The notes under the pieces were generated by a model. The model saw nothing but the letters and a program-made list of their open reading frames with translations. It had not been told where the DNA came from and did no database searches. This document shows, piece by piece, positions 2-11,409 of a DNA stretch of 13,194 bases. Both the position numbers and the translations under genes were made by a program. Every line of letters begins with the position of its first letter. Positions within the stretch are counted from its first letter, which is position 1. The DNA is from a virus (lineage: Duplodnaviria; Heunggongvirae; Uroviricota; Caudoviricetes): positions 1-13,194 of IMG/VR virus record IMGVR_UViG_2690316066_000016; one strand, written 5' to 3'.

Positions 2-691
2 GCTGAGCTTACCGCTGAGCTTAACATGCGTAAAAAACAATACAACTACTATCGCGACCAGTTATTTAGTTTTGGTGCCCACGATGTTAAACGTCTGAAA
101 TTAGGAGAGCTATGTGTAATTGGAGACGGTTTGCATGGTACTCCAGAATATGACGCCAACGGTGATTATTTCTTTATCAATGGAAACAATTTAGGCTATC
201 AAAAAATATCATTTAACGATAACACAAAAAAGGTTAATGATTCTATGTTTAAAAAACACGGAATTCATTTTGACCCAATAAATACTGTTTTCCTGTCAAT
301 TAATGGCACAATTGGAAATGTTTCCTTTTACAATAATGAGAAGATCGTACTCGGTAAGTCTGTGGCCTATTTTAAAATTAAATCACCTGAACTCCACACT
401 AGATATCTTTTCTATTTCCTGCAGACCAATTACGCAAAACAGTATTTTGAAAATCAAAAAACAGGTTCAACTATTAAAAACTTAGGTTTAAAATCGTTGA
501 GAGCATTTGAAATACCTATCCCATCATACGATGAACAACTTTATATCGTCGCCACGATGGATAAATTTTACAACCTGACAAACTCCATCACCGAAGGTCT
601 CCCGCGTGAAATCGAGTTGCGCCAGAAACAATACGAATACTACCGTGATTTACTGTTCAGTTTCCCGAAACCTGAAACTGTCAGTAATTAA
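2..691 (+). CDS. hsdS: Type I restriction-modification specificity subunit HsdS, 5'-truncated by the window edge (C-terminal target-recognition domain plus conserved tail)
   Basis: Frame opens at the window edge with [22 protein letters not shown] (central conserved region) and ends ...[20 protein letters not shown], the duplicated conserved motif typical of HsdS. The ATG at 26 is internal, not the true start. hsdR follows on the same strand. Confidence 0.8.
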
Positions 692-813
692 TTGACCATT
701 GCTACCGATCGGGCCACCTTAACACCCGGTCAGTATATAGACTATTTTTTTACGCGCCGGAAGTCACTCTTAACGCCCTTCCGGCTCTTGCCAGGCGGCA
801 CAAAGGATGCGCT

Positions 814-3800
814 ATGACTCATCAAACACACACCATTGCTGAATCCAATAACTTTATCGTCCTTGATAAGTACATCAAAGCTGAGCAAACAAGCGACAGC
901 TACCAGAGCGAATCGGACCTGGAACGTGAACTGATTCAGGACCTGCGGAATCAGGGTTATGAATTTATTTCGGTAAAATCACAGTCAGCGATGCAGGCCA
1001 ACGTTCGGGAACAGCTTCAGAGCCTCAATGGTGTGGTGTTTAATGACAGCGAGTGGCGGCGTTTCACGGAGCAGTATCTGGATAACCCGAGCGATGGCAT
1101 TCTGGATAAGACCCGTAAAATCCATATCGACTATATTTGCGACTTTATTTTTGATGACGAGCGTCTTGAGAACATCTATTTGATAGATAAAAAGAATCTC
1201 ATGCGCAATAAGGTGCAGATTATCCAGCAGTTTGAGCAGGCGGGTTCTCATGCTAACCGTTATGACGTCACGATCCTGGTTAATGGCTTACCACTGGTAC
1301 AAATCGAACTGAAAAAGCGCGGCGTGGCGATTCGTGAGGCTTTCAACCAGATACATCGTTACAGTAAAGAGAGTTTTAACAGCGAAAATTCCCTGTTTAA
1401 GTATCTGCAACTGTTTGTCATTTCTAACGGCACCGATACCCGTTACTTTGCCAACACCACAAAGCGCGATAAAAACAGTTTTGACTTCACCATGAACTGG
1501 GCGAAATCAGACAACACGCTGATTAAAGACCTCAAAGATTTTACCGCTACCTTTTTCCAGAAACATACTCTGCTTAATGTTCTGGTGAACTACAGCGTGT
1601 TCGATATTAGCCAGACGCTACTGGTGATGCGACCGTACCAGATTGCCGCTACCGAACGGATCTTATGGAAAATCAACAGTTCCTATAAAGCGAAAAACTG
1701 GTCTAACCCCGAAAGCGGTGGCTTTATCTGGCACACTACCGGTTCCGGTAAAACACTGACCAGCTTTAAAGCCGCGCGCCTGGCAACAGAACTGGACTTT
1801 ATTGATAAAGTCTTCTTTGTGGTCGACAGGAAAGACCTCGATTACCAGACGATGAAGGAATATCAGCGTTTTTCCCCAGACAGCGTCAACGGCTCGGAAA
1901 ATACCGCAGGCCTTAAACGAAATCTGGATAAGGACGATAACAAAATTATCGTCACCACTATTCAGAAACTTAATAACCTGATGAAAGCAGAAAGCGACCT
2001 GCCTGTATACAATCAGCAAGTGGTGTTTATATTTGATGAATGTCACCGCAGCCAGTTTGGAGAAGCGCAGAAAAATCTGAAGAAGAAATTCAAACGCTAT
2101 TATCAGTTTGGTTTTACCGGCACACCTATTTTCCCGGAAAACGCTTTAGGCTCAGAAACGACCGCCAGCGTATTTGGTCGTGAATTGCATTCATATGTGA
2201 TTACCGATGCGATTCGTGATGAAAAAGTGCTCAAATTCAAGGTGGACTATAACGATGTGCGGCCCCAGTTTAAATCTTTAGAGACAGAAACCGACGAGAA
2301 AAAACTGAGTGCGGCTGAAAATCAGCAGGCGTTTCTTCATCCCATGCGTATACAGGAAATTACGCAATATATTCTGAATAACTTCCGCCAGAAGACCCAC
2401 CGTACTTTCCCAGGTTCCAAAGGCTTTAATGCCATGCTGGCAGTGAGTAGCGTGGATGCCGCGAAAGCCTATTACGCGACGTTTAAACGGTTACAAGAGG
2501 AAGCAGCTAATAAATCGGCTACCTATAAACCGCTGCGTGTTGCGACAATCTTCTCCTTTGCCGCCAATGAAGAACAAAATGCCATTGGTGAAATTTCCGA
2601 TGAAACTTTTGATACCAGCGCAATGGACAGCAGTGCTAAAGAGTTTCTTGACGCTGCAATTCGTGAGTATAACAGCTATTTTAAAACTAACTTCAGCACC
2701 GACAGTAACGGTTTTCAGAACTACTATCGTGATTTAGCCCAACGGGTTAAAAATCAGGATATCGATCTGTTAATTGTCGTTGGGATGTTTTTAACCGGCT
2801 TCGACGCTCCAACATTGAACACGCTATTCGTCGATAAAAACTTGCGTTTTCACGGCCTGATGCAGGCATTCTCCCGCACCAACCGCATTTATAACGCCAC
2901 TAAAACCTTCGGTAACATCGTCACTTTCCGGGATCTGGAACGCTCAACCATTGATGCCATAACGCTGTTTGGTGATAAAAATACCAAAAATGTAGTGTTA
3001 GAAAAGAGTTATGCAGAGTATATGGAAGGCTTTACTGATGCTGCCACTGGTGAAGCTAAACGCGGCTTTATGGCAGTAGTTTCAGAACTGGAACAACGGT
3101 TCCCTGACCCTGCCAGTATTGAAAGTGAAAAAGAGAAGAAAGACTTCGTTAAACTGTTTGGTGAATACCTGCGTGCCGAGAACATCCTGCAAAACTATGA
3201 TGAATTTGCCACGCTGAAAGCCCTGCAACAAATCGATCTTAGCGATCCTGTTGCGGTAGAAAAATTCAAAGAAGAACATTATGTGGATGATGAAAAGTTC
3301 GCTGAATTACAAACGATTCGTCTCCCTGCTGAACGCAAGATTCAGGATTATCGTTCTGCCTATAACGATATTCGTGACTGGCAGCGCCGCGAGAAAGAGG
3401 CTGGCAAAAAAGAAAAGTTAACTACTGACTGGGATGACGTGGTTTTTGAAATCGATTTGCTGAAGTCTCAGGAAATAAACCTGGATTATATCCTTGGACT
3501 GATTTTCGAACACAACAGACAAAACAAAGGTAAGGGCGAAATGACCGAAGAGGTCAAGCGCTTAATTCGTTCGAGCCTTGGGAACCGTGCCAAAGAAGGT
3601 CTGGTGGTCGATTTTATTCAACAAACAAACCTGGATGATTTGCCGGATAAAGCCAGCATCATTGACGCGTTTTTTACCTTTGCTCAACGCGAACAGCAAC
3701 GTGAAGCAGAAGCATTGATCAAAGAAGAAAATCTCAATGAAGAGGCGGCGAAACGCTATATTCGCACGTCTTTAAAACGCGAATACGCCACCGAAAATGG

Positions 3801-3930
3801 CACGGAATTAAACGAGACATTGCCAAAACTCAGTCCGTTAAATCCGCAATATAAGACGAAAAAACAGACGGTTTTCCAGAAGATCGTCGCGTTTATTGAG
3901 AAGTTTAAAGGTGTAGGCGGGCAGATATAA
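814..3930 (+). CDS. hsdR: Type I restriction enzyme R subunit HsdR (1038 aa), EcoR124I-like (type IC) by length and context
   Basis: N-terminal PD-(D/E)xK-like nuclease region ([19 protein letters not shown]), helicase motif I HTTGSGKT, motif [12 protein letters not shown] (DExH). AAGGA sits 6 nt upstream of the ATG. The 1038-aa length matches my memory of EcoR124I HsdR (not verified here). Confidence 0.9.
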
Positions 3931-3944
3931 TGTATTAATCCGAA

Positions 3945-3974
3945 CCTGATCTGGCAGATAGCTGTCAGATCAGG
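3945..3974. repeat. Imperfect 13-bp-stem inverted repeat immediately downstream of hsdR (CCTGATCTGGCAG-ATAG-CTGTCAGATCAGG)
   Basis: Read directly from the sequence; one mismatch in the stem and no T-tract after it, so it is not a canonical intrinsic terminator. Possibly an mRNA 3' stabiliser or protein-binding site. Confidence 0.4.
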
Positions 3975-4114
3975 ACTGAGCTAATACAAATTAATATCGA
4001 ACCGAAAATACCAACGCCTGTACCAACATTTTTCGTTTGCGATGGGTTGGAATTGGTTAGCCCTGAGAGAGTTAAAATAGCGAGAAAGATAGGTAACTAA
4101 CGGATTTCAGACAC

Positions 4115-4137
4115 AAAAAAAGCCGCTCTTGAGCGGC
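4115..4137 (-). terminator. Rho-independent terminator on the minus strand, downstream of the tRNA-Leu 3' fragment
   Basis: Plus strand AAAAAAA-GCCGCTC-TT-GAGCGGC; on the minus strand this is a GC hairpin followed by a T7 run, 17 nt after the tRNA-like CCA end. Confidence 0.6.
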
Positions 4138-4154
4138 TCGATTTGCATACGATG

Positions 4155-4185
4155 TGGTGCCGAAGGCCGGACTCGAACCGGCACG
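4155..4185 (-). other. 31-nt 3'-terminal fragment of a tRNA-Leu gene (T-arm, acceptor 3' strand, CCA); putative att core of an integrated element
   Basis: Minus strand reads CGTGCCGGTTCGAGTCCGGCCTTCGGCACCA, matching from memory the 3' end of E. coli tRNA-Leu (leuX-type). Upstream sequence has no matching 5' acceptor strand (no GCCGAAG...), so this is not an intact tRNA. An integrase gene starts 134 nt away. Confidence 0.6.
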
Positions 4186-4318
4186 GGTTATAGCGACTTA
4201 GCTTGCTTCAACAATCATCGTTAACTTGTTGAACTAGTTAGACTAAAGCTCATGACCCCGGCACATTTCACAGACTGTTTAGCCATGAAAAAGCCCCGAC
4301 AACATAACCGGGGTTTGT

Positions 4319-5527
4319 ATGAGTTTCAAGAGAGATCGTTATCTAGTTTTAGATCCCTGCGGGAATTACCTCGTGCGGATAGCTATCCCCAACTACATGC
4401 GCCACCTGTTCCAAGGGAAGCGCTACTTTATGAAAAGCACAGGGACACGCGATGTACGCCAAGCGCGATTGTTTCGGGATGCTATTGCTCTGGAATGGAC
4501 TCGCTTACGGAATCTGCTAAAGCCGCAAGGCGGCTCGTCTGTAGATCAAATCATTGATGAGCTACGCCGTGTCAGTGTGTACGCCAAGGAAGCCCCCACA
4601 TCATTTGGTGCATCAGTTCAGTCTTGCCCTTCCCTACTTAAAATGCGCGATCTGTATCTTCTCCAATACAGCGAGAAGAGAAAGCTAACGACGCTATCCA
4701 AGACCAACAAAGCCGTAGAGATGCTGTTAACCCACCTGAAAAAGAAAGATGTTCAGTTGCGGGATATAAACCGAACCATAGTTACAGGCTGGTTAGATAA
4801 GCTCAAAACTGAGCGAGCGCCCCAAACTATCCAAAACTATATAAGCGCACTGGCACAGATATGGGACCTGGCACGCAATCGCTATCACGATGCGCCACAA
4901 GACAATCCTTGGCGCGGTCATGCGCTCGAAGCAAAAAGCAGCAAGGTCAGCTATGAAGTCTTCGCACCGGGTGAGCTGGCAAAGGTCTATGCTTTGCTTG
5001 ATGACGAGATGAAAGCGGTAACGGCTATTGGTGCATACAGCGGTATGCGGATCAATGAAATATGTACCCTACGTGAAAGCAGTATTAAAACTATCGAGGG
5101 AGTTTTGTGCTTTGAGATCACCGAGGGGAAGACCAAGAGCGCGGCGCGAATCGTCCCAGTACACAGCAAGCTAATCCCCCTCGTGAAATCATTGCTCAAA
5201 ACCACACATAGCGGTTTTCTGTTCTATCACGCATCAATTACAGACCGGGCCGATGGGAAGCGCTCAACGTGGCATACGCAGCAATTCACGCGAGCAAAGC
5301 GTAAAGCTCTTGGCGAGCTTGCCGCAGAGAGAAAAGTGTTTCACTCACTCCGCCATGCTTTTGTGCAACAGCTCGACCGCGCTCAAGTGCAAGAGGATAG
5401 AATCGCGCTACTGGTAGGCCATGAGCGTGGAAGTACAGAAAGTTTCAAAACCTATTCACGAAATAGCGCCTCAACGATTGAACTTAAAAAATACGTCGAA
5501 TTGTTGTCATATAAAGACATCAGGTAG
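4319..5527 (+). CDS. Tyrosine-type site-specific integrase (phage/island integrase)
   Basis: C-terminal catalytic signature: Arg in GMRINEICTLR, HxxR box HSLRHAF, LVGHE, and a Tyr in KTYSRNS about 35 aa after HxxR. Lies next to the tRNA-Leu att-like fragment. The start is uncertain; downstream Met codons are possible. Confidence 0.85.
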   Translation: MSFKRDRYLVLDPCGNYLVRIAIPNYMRHLFQGKRYFMKSTGTRDVRQARLFRDAIALEWTRLRNLLKPQGGSSVDQIIDELRRVSVYAKEAPTSFGASVQSCPSLLKMRDLYLLQYSEKRKLTTLSKTNKAVEMLLTHLKKKDVQLRDINRTIVTGWLDKLKTERAPQTIQNYISALAQIWDLARNRYHDAPQDNPWRGHALEAKSSKVSYEVFAPGELAKVYALLDDEMKAVTAIGAYSGMRINEICTLRESSIKTIEGVLCFEITEGKTKSAARIVPVHSKLIPLVKSLLKTTHSGFLFYHASITDRADGKRSTWHTQQFTRAKRKALGELAAERKVFHSLRHAFVQQLDRAQVQEDRIALLVGHERGSTESFKTYSRNSASTIELKKYVELLSYKDIR

Positions 5528-5578: not shown

Positions 5579-5605
5579 GGCTGCGCTATTAATTCAAGCG
5601 CAGCC
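5579..5605. terminator. Perfect 9-bp-stem hairpin (GGCTGCGCT-N9-AGCGCAGCC) between the convergent integrase and TIR genes; candidate bidirectional terminator
   Basis: Inverted repeat read from the sequence, located in the 83-bp gap between two convergent stop codons (5527 and 5611). Flanks are not strongly T-rich, so terminator function is inferred from position only. Confidence 0.35.
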
Positions 5606-5610
5606 AATCG

Positions 5611-6225
5611 TTACCATAGTCTAGGTTTAGCTCGGATAGCAGGAACTGTATCTGCATTTCTTTTAACAGCAGGATTCATAATTGCTCGCTTATTAAATGC
5701 TTCATCAATATATGTTTCGCAATCAGCAATAAAATCGGAATACCTTACCACTGCACAATACACTTCCTCATCGGTGTAATGCGGAACTGTTTTTTGAAGA
5801 CGATGATTACCTTGTACCAGATAAGGAAGATATAGTGTATAACCAGTAGAAATCTGCCTTAAACTCACTCCGCAGTTACATCGAAAGTCAGAACATACAG
5901 CATCGGTAAAAACTTCATTCCAGATTTCATCTCTGACGACACCTATCAATCCCGCTGGATTTTCACCCCATAGAGATGCTTGAATTTCTGAGTTCACAAA
6001 TGGACGTTGGGCGGTCTCTCTCCCGATAAGCACAACAGTAACTGTAGTATCAGCGAGATATTCCTCGCGTATCTTACGCATGATGTATTCTTCACTTACA
6101 TCAGTACTAATGTCACCGTCGCTTACGGATTTATCGATAAAAGATTCCCCACCATACGTCTCTATTATACTATCTTTTAAATCCTGTTCATTAGCATGAT
6201 GATAACTTAGAAATGTTTTATGCAT
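5611..6225 (-). CDS. TIR-like domain protein, ThsB-like (DUF1863-type); likely start at the Met codon 6225-6223, with an alternative in-frame ATG at 6237
   Basis: N-terminus KTFLSYHHANEQDL and core TVTVVLIGRETAQRPFVNSEIQASLWGENPAGLIGVV follow the ThsB/TIR-like pattern as I remember it (F-[ILF]-S-[YF]-H...D, then VLIG..T..R.[WF]V..EI with the conserved Glu). GGAG sits 6 nt upstream of the 6225 ATG. Its start overlaps the upstream gene's stop as TAATG. Confidence 0.7.
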   Translation of the reverse strand: MHKTFLSYHHANEQDLKDSIIETYGGESFIDKSVSDGDISTDVSEEYIMRKIREEYLADTTVTVVLIGRETAQRPFVNSEIQASLWGENPAGLIGVVRDEIWNEVFTDAVCSDFRCNCGVSLRQISTGYTLYLPYLVQGNHRLQKTVPHYTDEEVYCAVVRYSDFIADCETYIDEAFNKRAIMNPAVKRNADTVPAIRAKPRLW

Positions 6226-6962
6226 TAGTTGCTCCATTTATCCATGTCAATACTAAACTGGCTGGCAACACTATCTTGAAAGAATTTATTCAGCTCAGTG
6301 AAATCATTAACAAGTTTATTAAAATGATAATAGTAAGTCTGAATTTTACCGATTGGTGTCAGATGATACCTAAGAACAATTGCTTCACCATCAGGTTTCT
6401 CGTCAATTTTAACTTCATCTTTATCTGAGACGTATTTATGCCAGCGCCTATAATTATTTTGGTGCTCAGTCAGAAATGCATTTAGTTTTTTGAGCATAGT
6501 ATTCGCCAACATATATAACTCAAGATCTTTTTTCCTTTTAATATTCAGAACTCGCATCTCAACACGAATAAACTGATAGACCTCGTAGTAAGAATTAAAT
6601 ACCTCATCAAAAGCATCCTGCTGAACGTTTATTTTAAAAAGCGTCCTTTTCGTGTCGAGAAAATTCTGTATAGACTTTATGAAAAGGGCATCAGAGTTAT
6701 CAAAAAGAATATTTAAACCGCCAAAATTAAGCCGTTCAACTTTAAACGAATATTTTCTATTCATCATGCCATCTAATAGAAAGATAGCCACAATGATTAA
6801 TACAACTACAGAAAGTAGAGAACTAAGTACCCCAATATTTTGAAGTAAACGCTTACCGAAGGTTATATCTTCCGACGTTGGTAACTGAACAGTTCCCAAG
6901 AGCGCAATAACAACTATGCAAACAGACCCCCACACAACCCATCTCTTGTACATAAGCATCAT
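6225..6962 (-). CDS. Membrane protein with two N-terminal TM helices and a roughly 180-aa cytoplasmic domain of unknown family; candidate effector/partner of the TIR protein
   Basis: Hydrophobic stretches WVVWGSVCIVVIALLGTV and NIGVLSSLLSVVVLIIVAIFLL, with positive residues before TM1 and after TM2 (N-in/C-in). No family motif recognised in the C-terminal domain. Start ambiguous among three ATGs (6962, 6959, 6953); AGGA is best spaced for the 6953 ATG. Very AT-rich. Confidence 0.6.
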   Translation of the reverse strand: MMLMYKRWVVWGSVCIVVIALLGTVQLPTSEDITFGKRLLQNIGVLSSLLSVVVLIIVAIFLLDGMMNRKYSFKVERLNFGGLNILFDNSDALFIKSIQNFLDTKRTLFKINVQQDAFDEVFNSYYEVYQFIRVEMRVLNIKRKKDLELYMLANTMLKKLNAFLTEHQNNYRRWHKYVSDKDEVKIDEKPDGEAIVLRYHLTPIGKIQTYYYHFNKLVNDFTELNKFFQDSVASQFSIDMDKWSN

Positions 6963-7086: not shown

Positions 7087-7533
7087 CTAAGTAAGTTGCT
7101 CAGTTTTATGGGGATAGATAACTCCTATCCCCTTGTACTGGCGTCGGTAACTTACCAACATTACGCTCATACTGTCGTGGGCCAGTCCACATAAACTTCC
7201 TGCATAATAGCCTCCCTCGGCAGCGTTAGCAGATCGATGCACCACAGCACGCACGCGCCCGGTTCGGTGGCAGTGATCCAGCACGGCAGACCCAAGGCGC
7301 AGCGGCTTACCTGTCACTGCACAGCGTCGGTATTGATAATTCCACAAGAAGACACGGACAGTAGCCACATCAGCGCGACGCAGCTCCAGCCGTCCTGAAC
7401 CATTCAACAGGAAGTGATACACATCATCGAACGCAGCAGAATTTTTAATGCGTTCAGGCAACGGCGTATTGCCGAGATATTCCAGATATCCCCGCATCGC
7501 TTTTCTTAGTAGTTGGTCTGTCCGTGTAACCAT
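7087..7533 (-). CDS. Phage endonuclease VII-like (HNH-superfamily) protein, apparently degenerate in the zinc-ligand positions
   Basis: Motif CAVTGKPL...AVLDHCHRTGRVRAVVHRSANAAEG resembles the endonuclease VII signature (CxxC ... DHxHxTGxxRGxLCxxCN..G), but with CxxT and HxxA where the Cys pairs are expected. GGAG lies 10 nt upstream of the ATG. Confidence 0.5.
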   Translation of the reverse strand: MVTRTDQLLRKAMRGYLEYLGNTPLPERIKNSAAFDDVYHFLLNGSGRLELRRADVATVRVFLWNYQYRRCAVTGKPLRLGSAVLDHCHRTGRVRAVVHRSANAAEGGYYAGSLCGLAHDSMSVMLVSYRRQYKGIGVIYPHKTEQLT

Positions 7534-7805
7534 GATTCAAAGTCTCCACTGTCAGATGCAGCCCGTTTGCAGGCTTCGTATTCTTCGCGCTGGCGTTGGC
7601 ATACCAGAGCATAAAGCTCGACGGCCATCGCATTAACACGTTCGTCACTGATACCATTGCGGCGCATCAGCCCCAGCAGCTTACGAAATTTAGCTTCAAG
7701 CTCAGGCTCTCCGGTATCCATTACCCACTGTTTCAGGTCAGCGAGTGCGCCAGTCATTGGCGGCGGCTCGATGTACCGCCACCTTAATTTAATCGTGGTT
7801 ATCAT
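7506..7805 (-). CDS. Hypothetical phage protein (about 99 aa from the RBS-supported start; the ORF extends to 7853)
   Basis: Open frame with GAGAGGA 8 nt upstream of the ATG at 7805-7803, which overlaps the 3' end of the upstream gene (stop at 7789). No recognisable family. Confidence 0.45.
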   Translation of the reverse strand: MITTIKLRWRYIEPPPMTGALADLKQWVMDTGEPELEAKFRKLLGLMRRNGISDERVNAMAVELYALVCQRQREEYEACKRAASDSGDFESWLHGQTNY

Positions 7806-8214
7806 CTTCTTTATCCTCTCTGTAAGCCGGGTGCATTGCTCGGTATTGCTCAATGGTCAAACCCTCGCTGGCCGCTGCAAACCGTTCCTTTTGCTTACCC
7901 GCCAATCGCAAGGCGCTGTCTCTCCAGCAGAGCAGAAAGAAGATGGTCAGCACCTGTTTACTCAAGCCATCCAGAAGATCGCCAAGTCCTTGCTCAAGCA
8001 GACAGGCACGCCATGCAGCGGCGTGCTCAGTCATCGCACCTACTATCGGGACAGGTGCGCCGAGCATTGTCGCAAGCTGACTCATAACACTATTAGCATC
8101 GCCCGGATGCAGCCGGGGAATAGTCATGCGGCCAGCCTGCGCCAACAGCTCGTCGTACCGCTGGCGGCGTGGGTCATCACCTGCCAGCGACCTAATCGGC
8201 TTTTCATCAGCCAT
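7789..8214 (-). CDS. Hypothetical phage protein (141 aa)
   Basis: Open frame with a strong RBS (GGAGG 8 nt upstream of the ATG at 8214); co-directional and tightly packed with neighbouring phage genes; no family recognised. Confidence 0.5.
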   Translation of the reverse strand: MADEKPIRSLAGDDPRRQRYDELLAQAGRMTIPRLHPGDANSVMSQLATMLGAPVPIVGAMTEHAAAWRACLLEQGLGDLLDGLSKQVLTIFFLLCWRDSALRLAGKQKERFAAASEGLTIEQYRAMHPAYREDKEDDNHD

Positions 8215-8232
8215 TAATGGAACCTCCGAGGA

Positions 8233-8742
8233 TTAGGCAGCCTGCAATAAATCGGCTGGCGTTGAGGGATGGTATCTGGCTTTAGCTTTCAGGTACGCAA
8301 CACGCGCCGCAGCTTCGGTAGTGAATAAGCCAAGGTGATGACGTACACCATCAACACGAATATAAGCCTCCCATTTACTACTACCCTTATTCCAGCTATA
8401 CCCTCTTGCCCTGCGTCGATTCTGGTCGTTTTCCCGCTGCGTAACCAATCGCAGATTGCATAAGCGGTTGTCGTCACGGATACCGTTGATGTGATCGATC
8501 TGCATACCGTGGGGAATAGCACCATGCGCAAGAATCCACGCCACGCGATGGGCTTTTAGCTGGTACTGCTTGCCATCAAGTCGCAGGGCAACTTGACGAT
8601 AGCCATCAGCTCGACGGGTGGAGTCGGCATAGGTGCCAACCTTAACCCGGCGTCGGTTAGCTTTATGTTGCAGGCGGCCTGTCACCGGGTCATATAGGAA
8701 AAGGGAGAGCAGTAGCTCAGGGGCGTAAGCATCATTAACCAT
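8233..8742 (-). CDS. HNH homing endonuclease with a C-terminal AP2-like DNA-binding domain (phage-type)
   Basis: HRVAWILAHGAIPHGMQIDHINGIRDDNRLCNLRLVTQRENDQN is a classic phage HNH (HNH_3-type) motif; C-terminal SKWEAYIRVDGVRHHLGLFTTEAAARVAYLKA resembles an AP2 domain. Confidence 0.8.
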   Translation of the reverse strand: MVNDAYAPELLLSLFLYDPVTGRLQHKANRRRVKVGTYADSTRRADGYRQVALRLDGKQYQLKAHRVAWILAHGAIPHGMQIDHINGIRDDNRLCNLRLVTQRENDQNRRRARGYSWNKGSSKWEAYIRVDGVRHHLGLFTTEAAARVAYLKAKARYHPSTPADLLQAA

Positions 8743-8758
8743 GACTCAGCCCCTCCAG

Positions 8759-9754
8759 TTACACAGCTTGTCGGAAATTGATAACGCAGTCAGGACGACG
8801 CAGCCCAACGTTGAACAGGCGATATGAGTCCATCACCATTGTCATTTCGCGCTCATCATCCCACTGGCGATTAATGACGCTCTGCGCTTCGACCGTCAGC
8901 AGCACAGAGGAAGGTTTAAATAGCGTCGCCCTCGTCAGCGCTTCCTCTGCGGTAACATCATAATCAGCGCCCAGTTCATGCCCGGTGATGGCTTCCTGCG
9001 GGTAACTGTTGAGTTCAATGACTCGCACCCCAGCGACATAGCCAACGCGACGCCATGCGTAATCGTTGCCACTATCCCGGCTGTAACGGACGTTCATCAG
9101 CTTCTTATGCTCCATCAGGATGCTGAACCAAGCCGGGTCGATAAGCAGTACCAGCTCCGCCACCGGAATATCTTTCTCAGTCAGGAATCGATTAACAGCA
9201 GCTTTAATAGCGTGAACCAGCTCATTTGCTGCGTCCTCTTCACTACCCGTGGTCAGGTTGAGCGGGACAACGTTATCCGTAAGCGGGTTAAACGTTGGTT
9301 GCAGTGTCGGCGGTGGTACAAAGTCAGTCGCTTTGATTAGCTGGGTGGTGTGCGCTTCGTCGTAGAATTTAGCGTGAGCAGTACCCATATTGCGGCTCAG
9401 TTCTGCGCGAAAGGTGGGCGCTGTCCAGTCGTCCTGATAGTCAATCGGGACGCGGATATAGCTCAGCGTATCCACAGAGATAACCAACTTGTCCGACTTA
9501 ACGGCGGTAGGCTCCAGCGATTGCCCTGCGGTTCTGCCCTTCACCTCAAGATCACCACCTAGGCGATCAATGCGGTATTGGTTGCTGTTTTTCAGCGGCT
9601 TGTATGTGCTTAGCCCCTCTGCGAGAAAGACGCTCTTTGCCTCAAGGCGGGTCTGAACGTCCCGATCATACGCTTCAATGTGAATGTCGTTGTCAGCATC
9701 CACACCGCCCCAGTGCGGGCGGAATTGGTCAGGGGTATAAACATTGTCAGTCAT
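8759..9754 (-). CDS. Phage major capsid protein, T7 gp10-like (HK97 fold), putative
   Basis: Blocks KSDKLVISVDTLSYIRVPIDY, IKAAVNRFLTEKDIPVAELVLLIDPAWFSILME and RVGYVAGVRVIEL align by eye with T7 gp10 regions as I remember them (KVITIDGLL..., LTKNYVPAADRVFYCDPDSYSAILAA, NVMGFEVVEVPHL). GGAG lies 8 nt upstream of the ATG. Homology is from memory, not a search. Confidence 0.5.
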   Translation of the reverse strand: MTDNVYTPDQFRPHWGGVDADNDIHIEAYDRDVQTRLEAKSVFLAEGLSTYKPLKNSNQYRIDRLGGDLEVKGRTAGQSLEPTAVKSDKLVISVDTLSYIRVPIDYQDDWTAPTFRAELSRNMGTAHAKFYDEAHTTQLIKATDFVPPPTLQPTFNPLTDNVVPLNLTTGSEEDAANELVHAIKAAVNRFLTEKDIPVAELVLLIDPAWFSILMEHKKLMNVRYSRDSGNDYAWRRVGYVAGVRVIELNSYPQEAITGHELGADYDVTAEEALTRATLFKPSSVLLTVEAQSVINRQWDDEREMTMVMDSYRLFNVGLRRPDCVINFRQAV

Positions 9755-9821
9755 AGAAATAGCTCCAGCGCCAGCAGTAGCCAGCGTGATTTATGAAAAG
9801 AGAAAGAGAGAATGGGAGGAA

Positions 9822-10169
9822 TCAGGCAGCAGCTTTTTCAGCAGCCACCTCAAGAATCAGGCCGATAAGCGCGAAAGCGGGCCATTGGGGATTAAGCTCG
9901 TGCAGGTGCGCAACGCCTCCACCAAAAGCATCGCGCATGTCAGCACCAGAGATGCCAGAGCGTTTGGCCGCCCGCCGCAGCAATCGCAGCTCAGAGCTGG
10001 GAACATACGCCGAGGGCATACGCACGCCAAAGCGTGAGGCGAGCCGCCGCCAGTGAGTTTCATCAGCAAAGTCTTGTTTAAGCTGGCTGGCGTTGGCTTT
10101 CCAGTGTTCAATCTTTGCTCTACGGGCAGCCCTAGCCGCTGCCACGTTTTCAGGTGTCAGTAAGGTCAT
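9822..10169 (-). CDS. Hypothetical phage protein (115 aa)
   Basis: Open frame co-oriented with the phage module and preceded by a 160-bp intergenic gap; weak RBS; no family recognised. Confidence 0.4.
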   Translation of the reverse strand: MTLLTPENVAAARAARRAKIEHWKANASQLKQDFADETHWRRLASRFGVRMPSAYVPSSELRLLRRAAKRSGISGADMRDAFGGGVAHLHELNPQWPAFALIGLILEVAAEKAAA

Positions 10170-10329: not shown

Positions 10330-11409
10330 TTAGCGGCCAGCGCGCTTGCCAGCGGAGCGCTGCGCAACCAGATCGCGGTATTGTTCGTCGTACTGGCGAT
10401 GACCGGGGCCATACCCCGATTGCAGCGCCCACTGCGAAAGCTGGTCATACGCTGCAATAAATTCAGCATGAGACATCCCGACAGGTTGCGCGGTAGGCTG
10501 GCCATGCTGGGCATAACCAGTTTGTGAACCGCCAGCCATACGCTCTTGCAGATACTGAACCGCCCGCTGCATCTGAGCAGGGTCGCCAGACATAACCATC
10601 CGCTCAAGGGTAGATTGCGTCCCGGCATCGAGCGTGCCAGCATATTGCAACATCGCGTCAACTGTACCCTGCCCTAACTGACTTTCTATGGACTGTTGAA
10701 ACTGCCCCATTAACCCTTGCAGCTCGGCGGTATACTCGACAGCCGTCCAGCCATCTTTCATGGTGCGGATCTCTTTTTTACCCGCGTTGACCATTGGCTC
10801 GATGGTGAACGTCATCCCAGGTTTCAGTACGACGTTGGTTTCACGGGAGTCATAGTGCAGCACCTGCGGTTCTTCATGGAAGCCGCGACCAATACCGTGT
10901 CCACAATATTCACGAACGACGGAGAAGCCTTCTGCTTCGACAAACTTCTGAATCGCCGCACCGATTTCGCGCAGGTTAATGCCTGGTTTGACCATGCGCA
11001 GCGCCAGGTACAGGCTTTCTTGCGTGATGCGGCACAGACGTTCGCCCATGATGGTCGGCTTACCGACGATAAACATTTTCGAGGTATCGCCGTGGAAACC
11101 ATCTTTGATTACGGTGACATCAATGTTAACGATATCGCCATCTTTCAGCAGCTTCGCATCGTCCGGGATACCGTGGCACACCACTTCATTAATAGAGATG
11201 CAAACGGATTTCGGATAGCCGTGATAGCCGAGGCAGGCAGAAACCGCGTGTTGTTCATTAACAATGTAATCATTACAGATGCGATCCAGCTCGCCGGTGC
11301 TGACGCCCGGTTTAACATACGGTTCGATCATCTCCAGCACTTCGGCAGCCAGTCGGCCAGCGACGCGCATTTTTTCGATATCTTCTGGGGTCTTGATTGA
11401 GATAGCCAT
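10330..11409 (-). CDS. map: Chimeric ORF: methionine aminopeptidase Map residues 1-222 fused in frame to 137 aa of unrelated (phage-like) sequence; native Map C-terminus (42 aa) missing
   Basis: Translation matches E. coli Map from MAISIKTPEDIEKMRVAG... through ...KKEIRTMKDGWT, then diverges to AVEYTAELQGLMGQFQQ... Nucleotide homology to map stops at about 10743. Position divergent from rpsB matches the known map-rpsB arrangement. Confidence 0.85.
   Translation of the reverse strand: MAISIKTPEDIEKMRVAGRLAAEVLEMIEPYVKPGVSTGELDRICNDYIVNEQHAVSACLGYHGYPKSVCISINEVVCHGIPDDAKLLKDGDIVNIDVTVIKDGFHGDTSKMFIVGKPTIMGERLCRITQESLYLALRMVKPGINLREIGAAIQKFVEAEGFSVVREYCGHGIGRGFHEEPQVLHYDSRETNVVLKPGMTFTIEPMVNAGKKEIRTMKDGWTAVEYTAELQGLMGQFQQSIESQLGQGTVDAMLQYAGTLDAGTQSTLERMVMSGDPAQMQRAVQYLQERMAGGSQTGYAQHGQPTAQPVGMSHAEFIAAYDQLSQWALQSGYGPGHRQYDEQYRDLVAQRSAGKRAGR

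Follow-up and report, generated by a model that had tools for sequence, protein, structure and literature searches.

Gene organization of the thsG–thsB locus

The locus lies within a window of 13,194 nucleotides (the whole stretch of viral DNA that was analysed) and consists of two genes on the minus strand: thsG at 6225..6953, assigned here as a type VI Thoeris effector gene, and thsB at 5611..6225, assigned as the gene of a TIR-domain sensor and signal synthase. The longest open reading frame at the thsG position, 6225-6962 on the minus strand, encodes 245 residues up to an ATG at 6962 and is a real, conserved gene. As read from the nucleotide sequence, its start is most likely the ATG at 6953, the fourth codon of that frame, which yields a product of 242 residues plus stop, because the lengths of homologs and RefSeq models and an AGGA motif 9 nt upstream agree on this position; the fourth-codon start is seen in 27 of 27 aligned homologs and in the RefSeq models of two near-identical E. 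coli loci. Public records annotate ThsG as 'hypothetical protein'. The G+C content of the pair is 35-38%, compared with 43-56% on the flanks. A consensus promoter scan upstream of thsG returned nothing convincing, with counts equal to the shuffled expectation.

The thsB product, 204 residues plus stop, is a ThsB_TIR protein that matches PF08937 (E = 1.3e-14) as well as several PADLOC ThsB models. The thsG stop and the thsB start share one base (TAATG), and a GGAG motif is positioned 8 nt upstream of the thsB ATG, an arrangement that indicates translational coupling of the two genes. The conserved glutamate of TIR domains is catalytic; in ThsB it can be read from the sequence as E80 within the motif FVNSEIQ (codon at 5986..5988, minus strand), where it aligns with the glutamate in VDWEIS of the Gammaproteobacteria type VI TIR, and by this analogy E80 is expected to be the catalytic residue. 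Beyond the operon, 5 nt past the thsB stop, the sequence contains a perfect 9-bp inverted repeat (5579..5605, minus strand) composed of GGCTGCGCT, a 9-nt loop and AGCGCAGCC, which may act as the operon terminator. A consensus terminator scan did not report this repeat because it has no T-run and its loop is longer than 8 nt.

The association of the two genes extends well beyond the window. Among 23 loci that carry a thsG homolog, 22 have thsB directly downstream in the same orientation, either abutting thsG or overlapping it, and these comprise P2-like prophages, 18 IMG/VR viral contigs, a satellite-like island and an Alicyclobacillus chromosome; the question raised in the preliminary description, whether homologs always stand next to a TIR gene, is thereby answered in favour of linkage. 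The lone exception is an IncF plasmid with IS1 at the thsB position (NZ_MT648288, locus L014), in which an orphan or decayed thsG homolog of 47% identity at 2986-3696 is followed by the insertion sequence. In all, thsG homologs, every one annotated as hypothetical, are present on 140 plasmids of Klebsiella, Escherichia, Enterobacter and Citrobacter. A tblastn search of GenBank phages matched nothing, though IMG/VR viral contigs and P2-like prophages carry the pair.

Genomic context of the operon

The operon forms the integrase-proximal cargo of a mobile island, sitting between the tyrosine integrase of that island (4319..5527, plus strand; PF00589 and DUF6538) and a set of phage-type genes. 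The same DNA, at 95-97% identity, was found in LT883142 and S1 and in no other of 5426 complete E. coli genomes, and in both the order integrase, thsB, thsG is the same. On the opposite side of the operon, the island cargo at window positions 7087-10169 includes two nuclease genes (endonuclease VII and an HNH endonuclease) as well as two small unknown genes and genes for a major head protein (phrog_267) and a phrog_21723 protein; neither a terminase nor a portal gene was found within the window. The island in LT883142 runs on to a DEAD/DEAH helicase gene and looks like a phage satellite.

The two ends of the island differ in character. Directly upstream of the integrase lie a type I restriction-modification hsdS fragment and hsdR (26-3930), and the hsdR–integrase junction (3300-5200) is natural, occurring in eight complete genomes including E2348/69, so that the island is located in a defence-rich region. 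At the far end, an open reading frame at 10330-11409 joins residues 1 to ~224 of methionine aminopeptidase (Map) to an island protein of ~135 residues. Island-like DNA extends to 10755 and map DNA begins at 10743, leaving a 13-bp overlap; map would be shortened by ~40 residues at its end, and the island is shorter here than in LT883142. None of the 5426 complete E. coli genomes contains this map–island junction, and the fusion is due to an unusual rearrangement or, alternatively, to chimeric assembly.

Membrane topology and predicted fold of ThsG

A Kyte-Doolittle scan with 19-residue windows detects two hydrophobic segments in the N-terminal part of ThsG, the windows being centred on residues 16-21 and 47-61, in agreement with the pair of transmembrane (TM) helices that the preliminary description had placed at about residues 8-25 and 42-63. 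Specifically, TM helix 1 spans residues ~8-27 in the numbering of the 245-residue frame (6882..6941, minus strand) and is defined by hydropathy together with an AF2 helix at 2-23, while TM helix 2 spans residues ~43-64 (6771..6836, minus strand), with a hydropathy peak of 3.13 and an AF2 helix at 43-67. Beyond residue 75 the scan never exceeds 0.78 and reveals no further hydrophobic segment. Flanking charges of +2 both at the N-terminus and past TM helix 2, against 0 in the loop, fit an N-in/C-in topology and thus place the C-terminal domain in the cytoplasm.

This cytoplasmic domain, residues ~66-245 (6228..6767, minus strand), is delimited by the clade alignment, the AF2 model and hhalign; it comprises ~180 residues, and signal binding and oligomerisation are presumed to take place here. 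The AF2 model, a monomer built from the family alignment, has a mean pLDDT of 80.5 and exceeds 90 over residues ~90-240. Structurally, it adopts a helical bundle (residues 90-102, 118-138, 144-181 and 214-236) decorated by a single β-hairpin at residues 183-198. The hairpin, EVKIDEKPDGEAIVLR (about 6369-6416), is a clade-specific insertion with no counterpart in the broader ThsG family when the profiles are aligned. Within the C-terminal region, the pLDDT of the monomer model falls below 50 at residues 71-86 only, which suggests that this stretch may acquire order solely upon oligomerisation or ligand binding. It overlaps the segment ERLxFGGxNILFDNSD at residues 76-91 (about 6690-6737), the most conserved motif of the window ThsG clade.

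Domain searches agree with the earlier reading of the ~180-residue domain as free of Macro, SIR2 and SLOG domains. ThsG has no match in Pfam (including the Macro, SIR2, SLOG and SLATT models), PADLOC 2.0, PHROGs or NCBIfam. No Macro domain, the mark of type II, was detected C-terminal to the TM helices; the SIR2 and SLOG domains of type I ThsA gave no Pfam or PADLOC match, and the model is all-helical; and the SLATT Pfam models that mark type VII Thoeris and CBASS effectors were unmatched in 27 members at E <= 10. A Pfam scan of the 27 close homologs at this same threshold returned scattered chance matches, with none to Macro, SIR2, SLOG, SLATT or DUF6650. Profile searching of PDB sequences with ThsG produced only chance-level matches (E >= 0.13); a hit to the BRD4 bromodomain (E = 0.13) over a 43-residue helical stretch was treated as chance.

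Correspondence to published type VI Thoeris

By sequence identity, the window pair is a type VI Thoeris system composed of ThsB and ThsG, and as such already known from a preprint of December 2025 in which Yirmiya et al. name the type VI effector ThsG (bioRxiv 10.64898/2025.12.03.692087). Window ThsB is identical at 178 of 181 residues to the E. coli S1 type VI TIR (IMG 2719191281, Table S1 of the preprint), and window ThsG is identical at 238 of 242 residues to the effector encoded by the adjacent S1 gene; the Table S1 TIR in turn matches the TIR in CP010226 (E. coli S1) at 181 of 181 residues. In that preprint, Table S1 labels IMG 2719191281 as 'DUF6650 - Type VI' from E. coli S1, Table S2 lists this TIR with effector 2719191282 as 'DUF6650 and TM', type VI, and the S1 pair in E. 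coli MG1655 is recorded as Defense Yes, with SECphi18 as activating phage. It is the near-identity to this validated pair that establishes type VI membership. A second tested system, that of E. coli ACN001, also defends E. coli MG1655 (Yirmiya et al.); its TIR is identical at 173 of 173 residues to the TIR beside P0021, a protein of the same family that is encoded in a P2-like prophage and is 50% identical to window ThsG. A 2024 survey of E. coli TIR systems designates them TIR-I to TIR-IX (PMC11350192).

The preliminary description had proposed a Thoeris-like operon with a new signal-sensing domain coupled to a membrane-disrupting effector. Its operon assignment holds, given the adjoining ThsB_TIR gene and the near-identical S1 pair, and so does the Thoeris membrane effector, with sensing presumed; the claim of novelty falls, since a 98%-identical pair is published. 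The system is a known Thoeris subtype, an outcome that the preliminary description had itself named as contradicting its proposal, though the domain is none of those that it had listed.

The published domain label 'DUF6650 (PF20355)' could not be reproduced here. With hmmscan, PF20355 was matched neither by window ThsG (E <= 0.1), nor by distant ThsG homologs (10, then 101, at E <= 0.01), nor by the effectors beside Bacillus type VI-like TIRs (E <= 10), and these non-matches, like that of the close homologs above, are to be read with the proviso that the Pfam copy scanned may not contain PF20355. Precomputed Pfam domains were absent from the top 120 of at least 3738 proteins of the broader ThsG family. 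The resulting doubt touches the label, not type VI membership.

The ThsG family and its conserved residues

The close ThsG family comprises 28 clusters at 90% identity with 33 invariant columns, drawn mostly from Enterobacterales with one Alicyclobacillus member. The domain is characterized by the motifs FGGxNILF, LDTKR, DxFDEVxNSYY, LNxFLTxHQNNYRRWH and HLTPIGxIQ. A set of mainly basic and aromatic residues, K105, R106, R133, Q168, R172, R173 and W174, is invariant or almost so. The Alicyclobacillus hesperidum locus (L002, 1232-2562) contains a thsG–thsB pair that is 38% identical to the enterobacterial clade and stands beside gatCAB; this pair implies a cross-phylum transfer of a cognate thsG–thsB unit.

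When the clade profile was run against 1.84 billion representative proteins, 183 relatives were retrieved at E <= 1e-3, and the more distant of them possess one, two or no TM helices. The soluble branch was reached by using the Bacillus type VI TIR of Table S1 as query and then examining the genes beside its relatives: the related TIRs are 72-86% identical to the query, and the adjoining effectors, of 170-171 residues, match the same distant ThsG set directly (phmmer). Aligned by hhalign, the window clade and the broader ThsG family give a probability of 98.7% (E = 1.6e-16, 150 columns), while the alignment of the clade to a single Bacillus effector is not significant (E = 0.18). Residues shared with the broader family, in window numbering, are T104-K105-R106, D116, E120, N123-S124-Y125-Y126 and R133, together with L160-N161, L164-T165, Q168, Y171-R172, W174, P203 and Q208. 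As judged by these profile comparisons, the window effector domain is homologous to the ThsG of 2'cADPR-signalling members, including soluble Bacillus ThsG.

The broader family counts no fewer than 3738 bacterial and archaeal proteins, among them proteins of Methanococcus maripaludis, Altiarchaeales, Methanophagales and Vibrio cholerae. Two Bacillus/Priestia type VI-like loci (L011, 4237-6585; L012, 4151-6582) are arranged back-to-back with a second operon, which encodes a TIR_2 protein of 263-265 residues and proteins of 213-214 and 409-413 residues, both without Pfam match, and which may be another TIR-based system. On a Logan metagenome contig (L009, 1641-2857), a one-TM ThsG-like gene (224 residues) with its own ThsB lies beside a second, divergently oriented ThsB_TIR gene; the contig encodes a TIR identical to one of Ruminiclostridium papyrosolvens.

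Proposed mechanism and alternative explanations

The explanation that we regard, as a whole, as highly probable is that thsG encodes a type VI effector, is coupled at the level of translation to its cognate TIR gene thsB, and acts by a signal-triggered membrane damage that stops growth. ThsB would detect phage infection, and NAD processing by its TIR domain would generate a cyclic ADP-ribose isomer, which is 2'cADPR in characterised type VI systems. This signal would be bound by the helical cytoplasmic domain of ThsG, in a pocket of conserved basic and aromatic residues. ThsG probably assembles into a ring-shaped homo-oligomer whose basic pockets lie at the subunit boundaries, and this oligomer would change shape on binding. 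The two N-terminal TM helices would then damage the inner membrane, so that growth would stop with phage replication unfinished.

Published work on type VI systems provides the framework for this scheme. Type VI TIRs yield 2'cADPR only after infection, production having been reported in three of five such systems; the growth of system-carrying cells is arrested by added 2'cADPR and by neither 3'cADPR nor cADPR, a toxicity reported for the Gammaproteobacteria and Bacillus scaffold systems only; and phages engineered with the sponges Tad1 or MoTad2 overcome type VI defence (bioRxiv 10.64898/2025.12.03.692087). In the same preprint, AF3 predicts a ring of six identical ThsG subunits with positively charged inter-protomer pockets, and some ThsG proteins are described as having N-terminal TM helices that 'may ... 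breach membrane integrity'. A 2026 follow-up preprint describes ThsG as membrane-spanning and 2'cADPR-activated, and reports that the 2'cADPR-cleaving XopQ abolishes type VI defence. For the window protein, we infer a ThsG hexamer, a binding pocket and membrane damage. The putative role of 2'cADPR as signal of the window and E. coli clade is carried over by analogy from other type VI members, because the toxicity data come from the two scaffolds named above; window ThsB and the Gammaproteobacteria scaffold TIR, which belongs to a 2'cADPR-responsive system, share 42% identity over about 100 residues.

The same TIR-signal and membrane-effector logic could operate in the Enterobacterales two-TM clade with a TIR product other than 2'cADPR, a variant that we rate as rather unlikely. 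The E. coli systems (S1 and ACN001) may be the two tested type VI systems in which 2'cADPR was not detectable, since toxicity was assayed with other scaffolds and the E. coli TIRs were on native promoters; should the clade indeed be that pair, another TIR-derived signal would be conceivable at similarly low probability. Consistent with this variant are the restriction of the growth-arrest data to the two scaffolds, the traits that set the clade apart (the β-hairpin insertion, TKR in place of TRK, and HQNNYRRWH in place of HLTKWQAxFRxW) and the divergence of window ThsB from the 2'cADPR-linked Gammaproteobacteria TIR past about residue 100. Yet the preprint's authors first explain the non-detection by production too weak to be detected; the E. 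coli TIRs were expressed from native promoters and not from pBAD; the E. coli and Gammaproteobacteria TIRs fall into one TIR cluster, 2741407742; and the residues conserved across the superfamily are retained in the clade. If another signal were used, the β-hairpin and the FGGxNILFDNSD segment could be what alters ligand specificity.

Many bacterial TIR proteins are NADase effectors, and a reversal of roles can therefore be envisaged: the TIR protein would be toxic through NAD depletion and so act as the effector, with the membrane protein serving as a sensor or anchor. The limitations section of the preprint allows this for non-verified configurations (bioRxiv 10.64898/2025.12.03.692087), and the signal assignment for the exact clade is made by analogy. 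Such a reversal is nevertheless improbable: the characterised type VI TIR alone makes 2'cADPR on infection, exogenous 2'cADPR is toxic only when the system is present, and window ThsB is a short, ThsB-type protein resembling the signalling TIRs of Thoeris. Moreover, TM-less ThsG homologs also adjoin TIR genes, so that ThsG is not simply a membrane anchor. That thsG might be a phage moron with another membrane function (holin-like or superinfection exclusion) and a TIR neighbour by chance, as could be imagined for a small two-TM protein on prophages and satellites, is effectively refuted by the conserved linkage, in that the gene order is fixed in 22 of 23 loci, which range from P2-like prophages through a satellite-like island to a Firmicute chromosome, and by the published defence assay of a near-identical pair.

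With thsG read as a signal-activated type VI effector, little is added as discovery, since the system class and the name of its effector are already public, as is a tested example of 98% identity. ThsG is, however, missed by Pfam, PADLOC 2.0, PHROGs and NCBIfam, and type VI Thoeris is therefore under-reported in annotation and in defence-system counts. The conserved ThsG residues listed above are ready targets for mutagenesis.

Comparison with known systems

The closest counterparts are the type VI systems of E. coli S1 and ACN001, which share with the window the two-gene operon and its gene order, a two-TM protein with the ThsG domain followed by the ThsB TIR. The window differs from S1 by four ThsG residues and by three of the compared 181 ThsB residues, and the genomic neighbours differ, the window having hsdR on one side and a truncated island on the other.

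The Gammaproteobacteria scaffold (TM-containing ThsG) and the Bacillus scaffold (soluble ThsG) resemble the window in having a homologous effector domain and a TIR partner. Window ThsG is only about 17-25% identical to scaffold ThsG, while the motifs T-[KR]-[KR], DxxxE..NS[WY]Y, LNxxL.x.LTxxQxx[FY]RxW and PxxIQ are common to them. The number of TM helices varies, being two in the window clade, none in Bacillus effectors and one in many relatives, and compared with the scaffolds the window clade alone has the hairpin at ~183-198 and a strongly conserved FGGxNILFDNSD.

The type II effector (two TM helices and a Macro domain; ThsA, renamed ThsC by Yirmiya et al.) shares the general architecture of two N-terminal TM helices, a cytoplasmic ligand-sensing domain and a ThsB TIR, together with abortive or growth-arrest defence. 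In contrast to type II, the cytoplasmic domain in the window is an all-helical bundle and not a Macro fold, and the signal of type II is His-ADPR, as opposed to 2'cADPR in type VI. Finally, type VII ThsH and the SLATT effectors of CBASS are likewise small, nucleotide-activated membrane effectors, for which both oligomerisation and a breach of the membrane are predicted; their helices are arranged otherwise, whereas window ThsG carries its TM pair at the extreme N-terminus.
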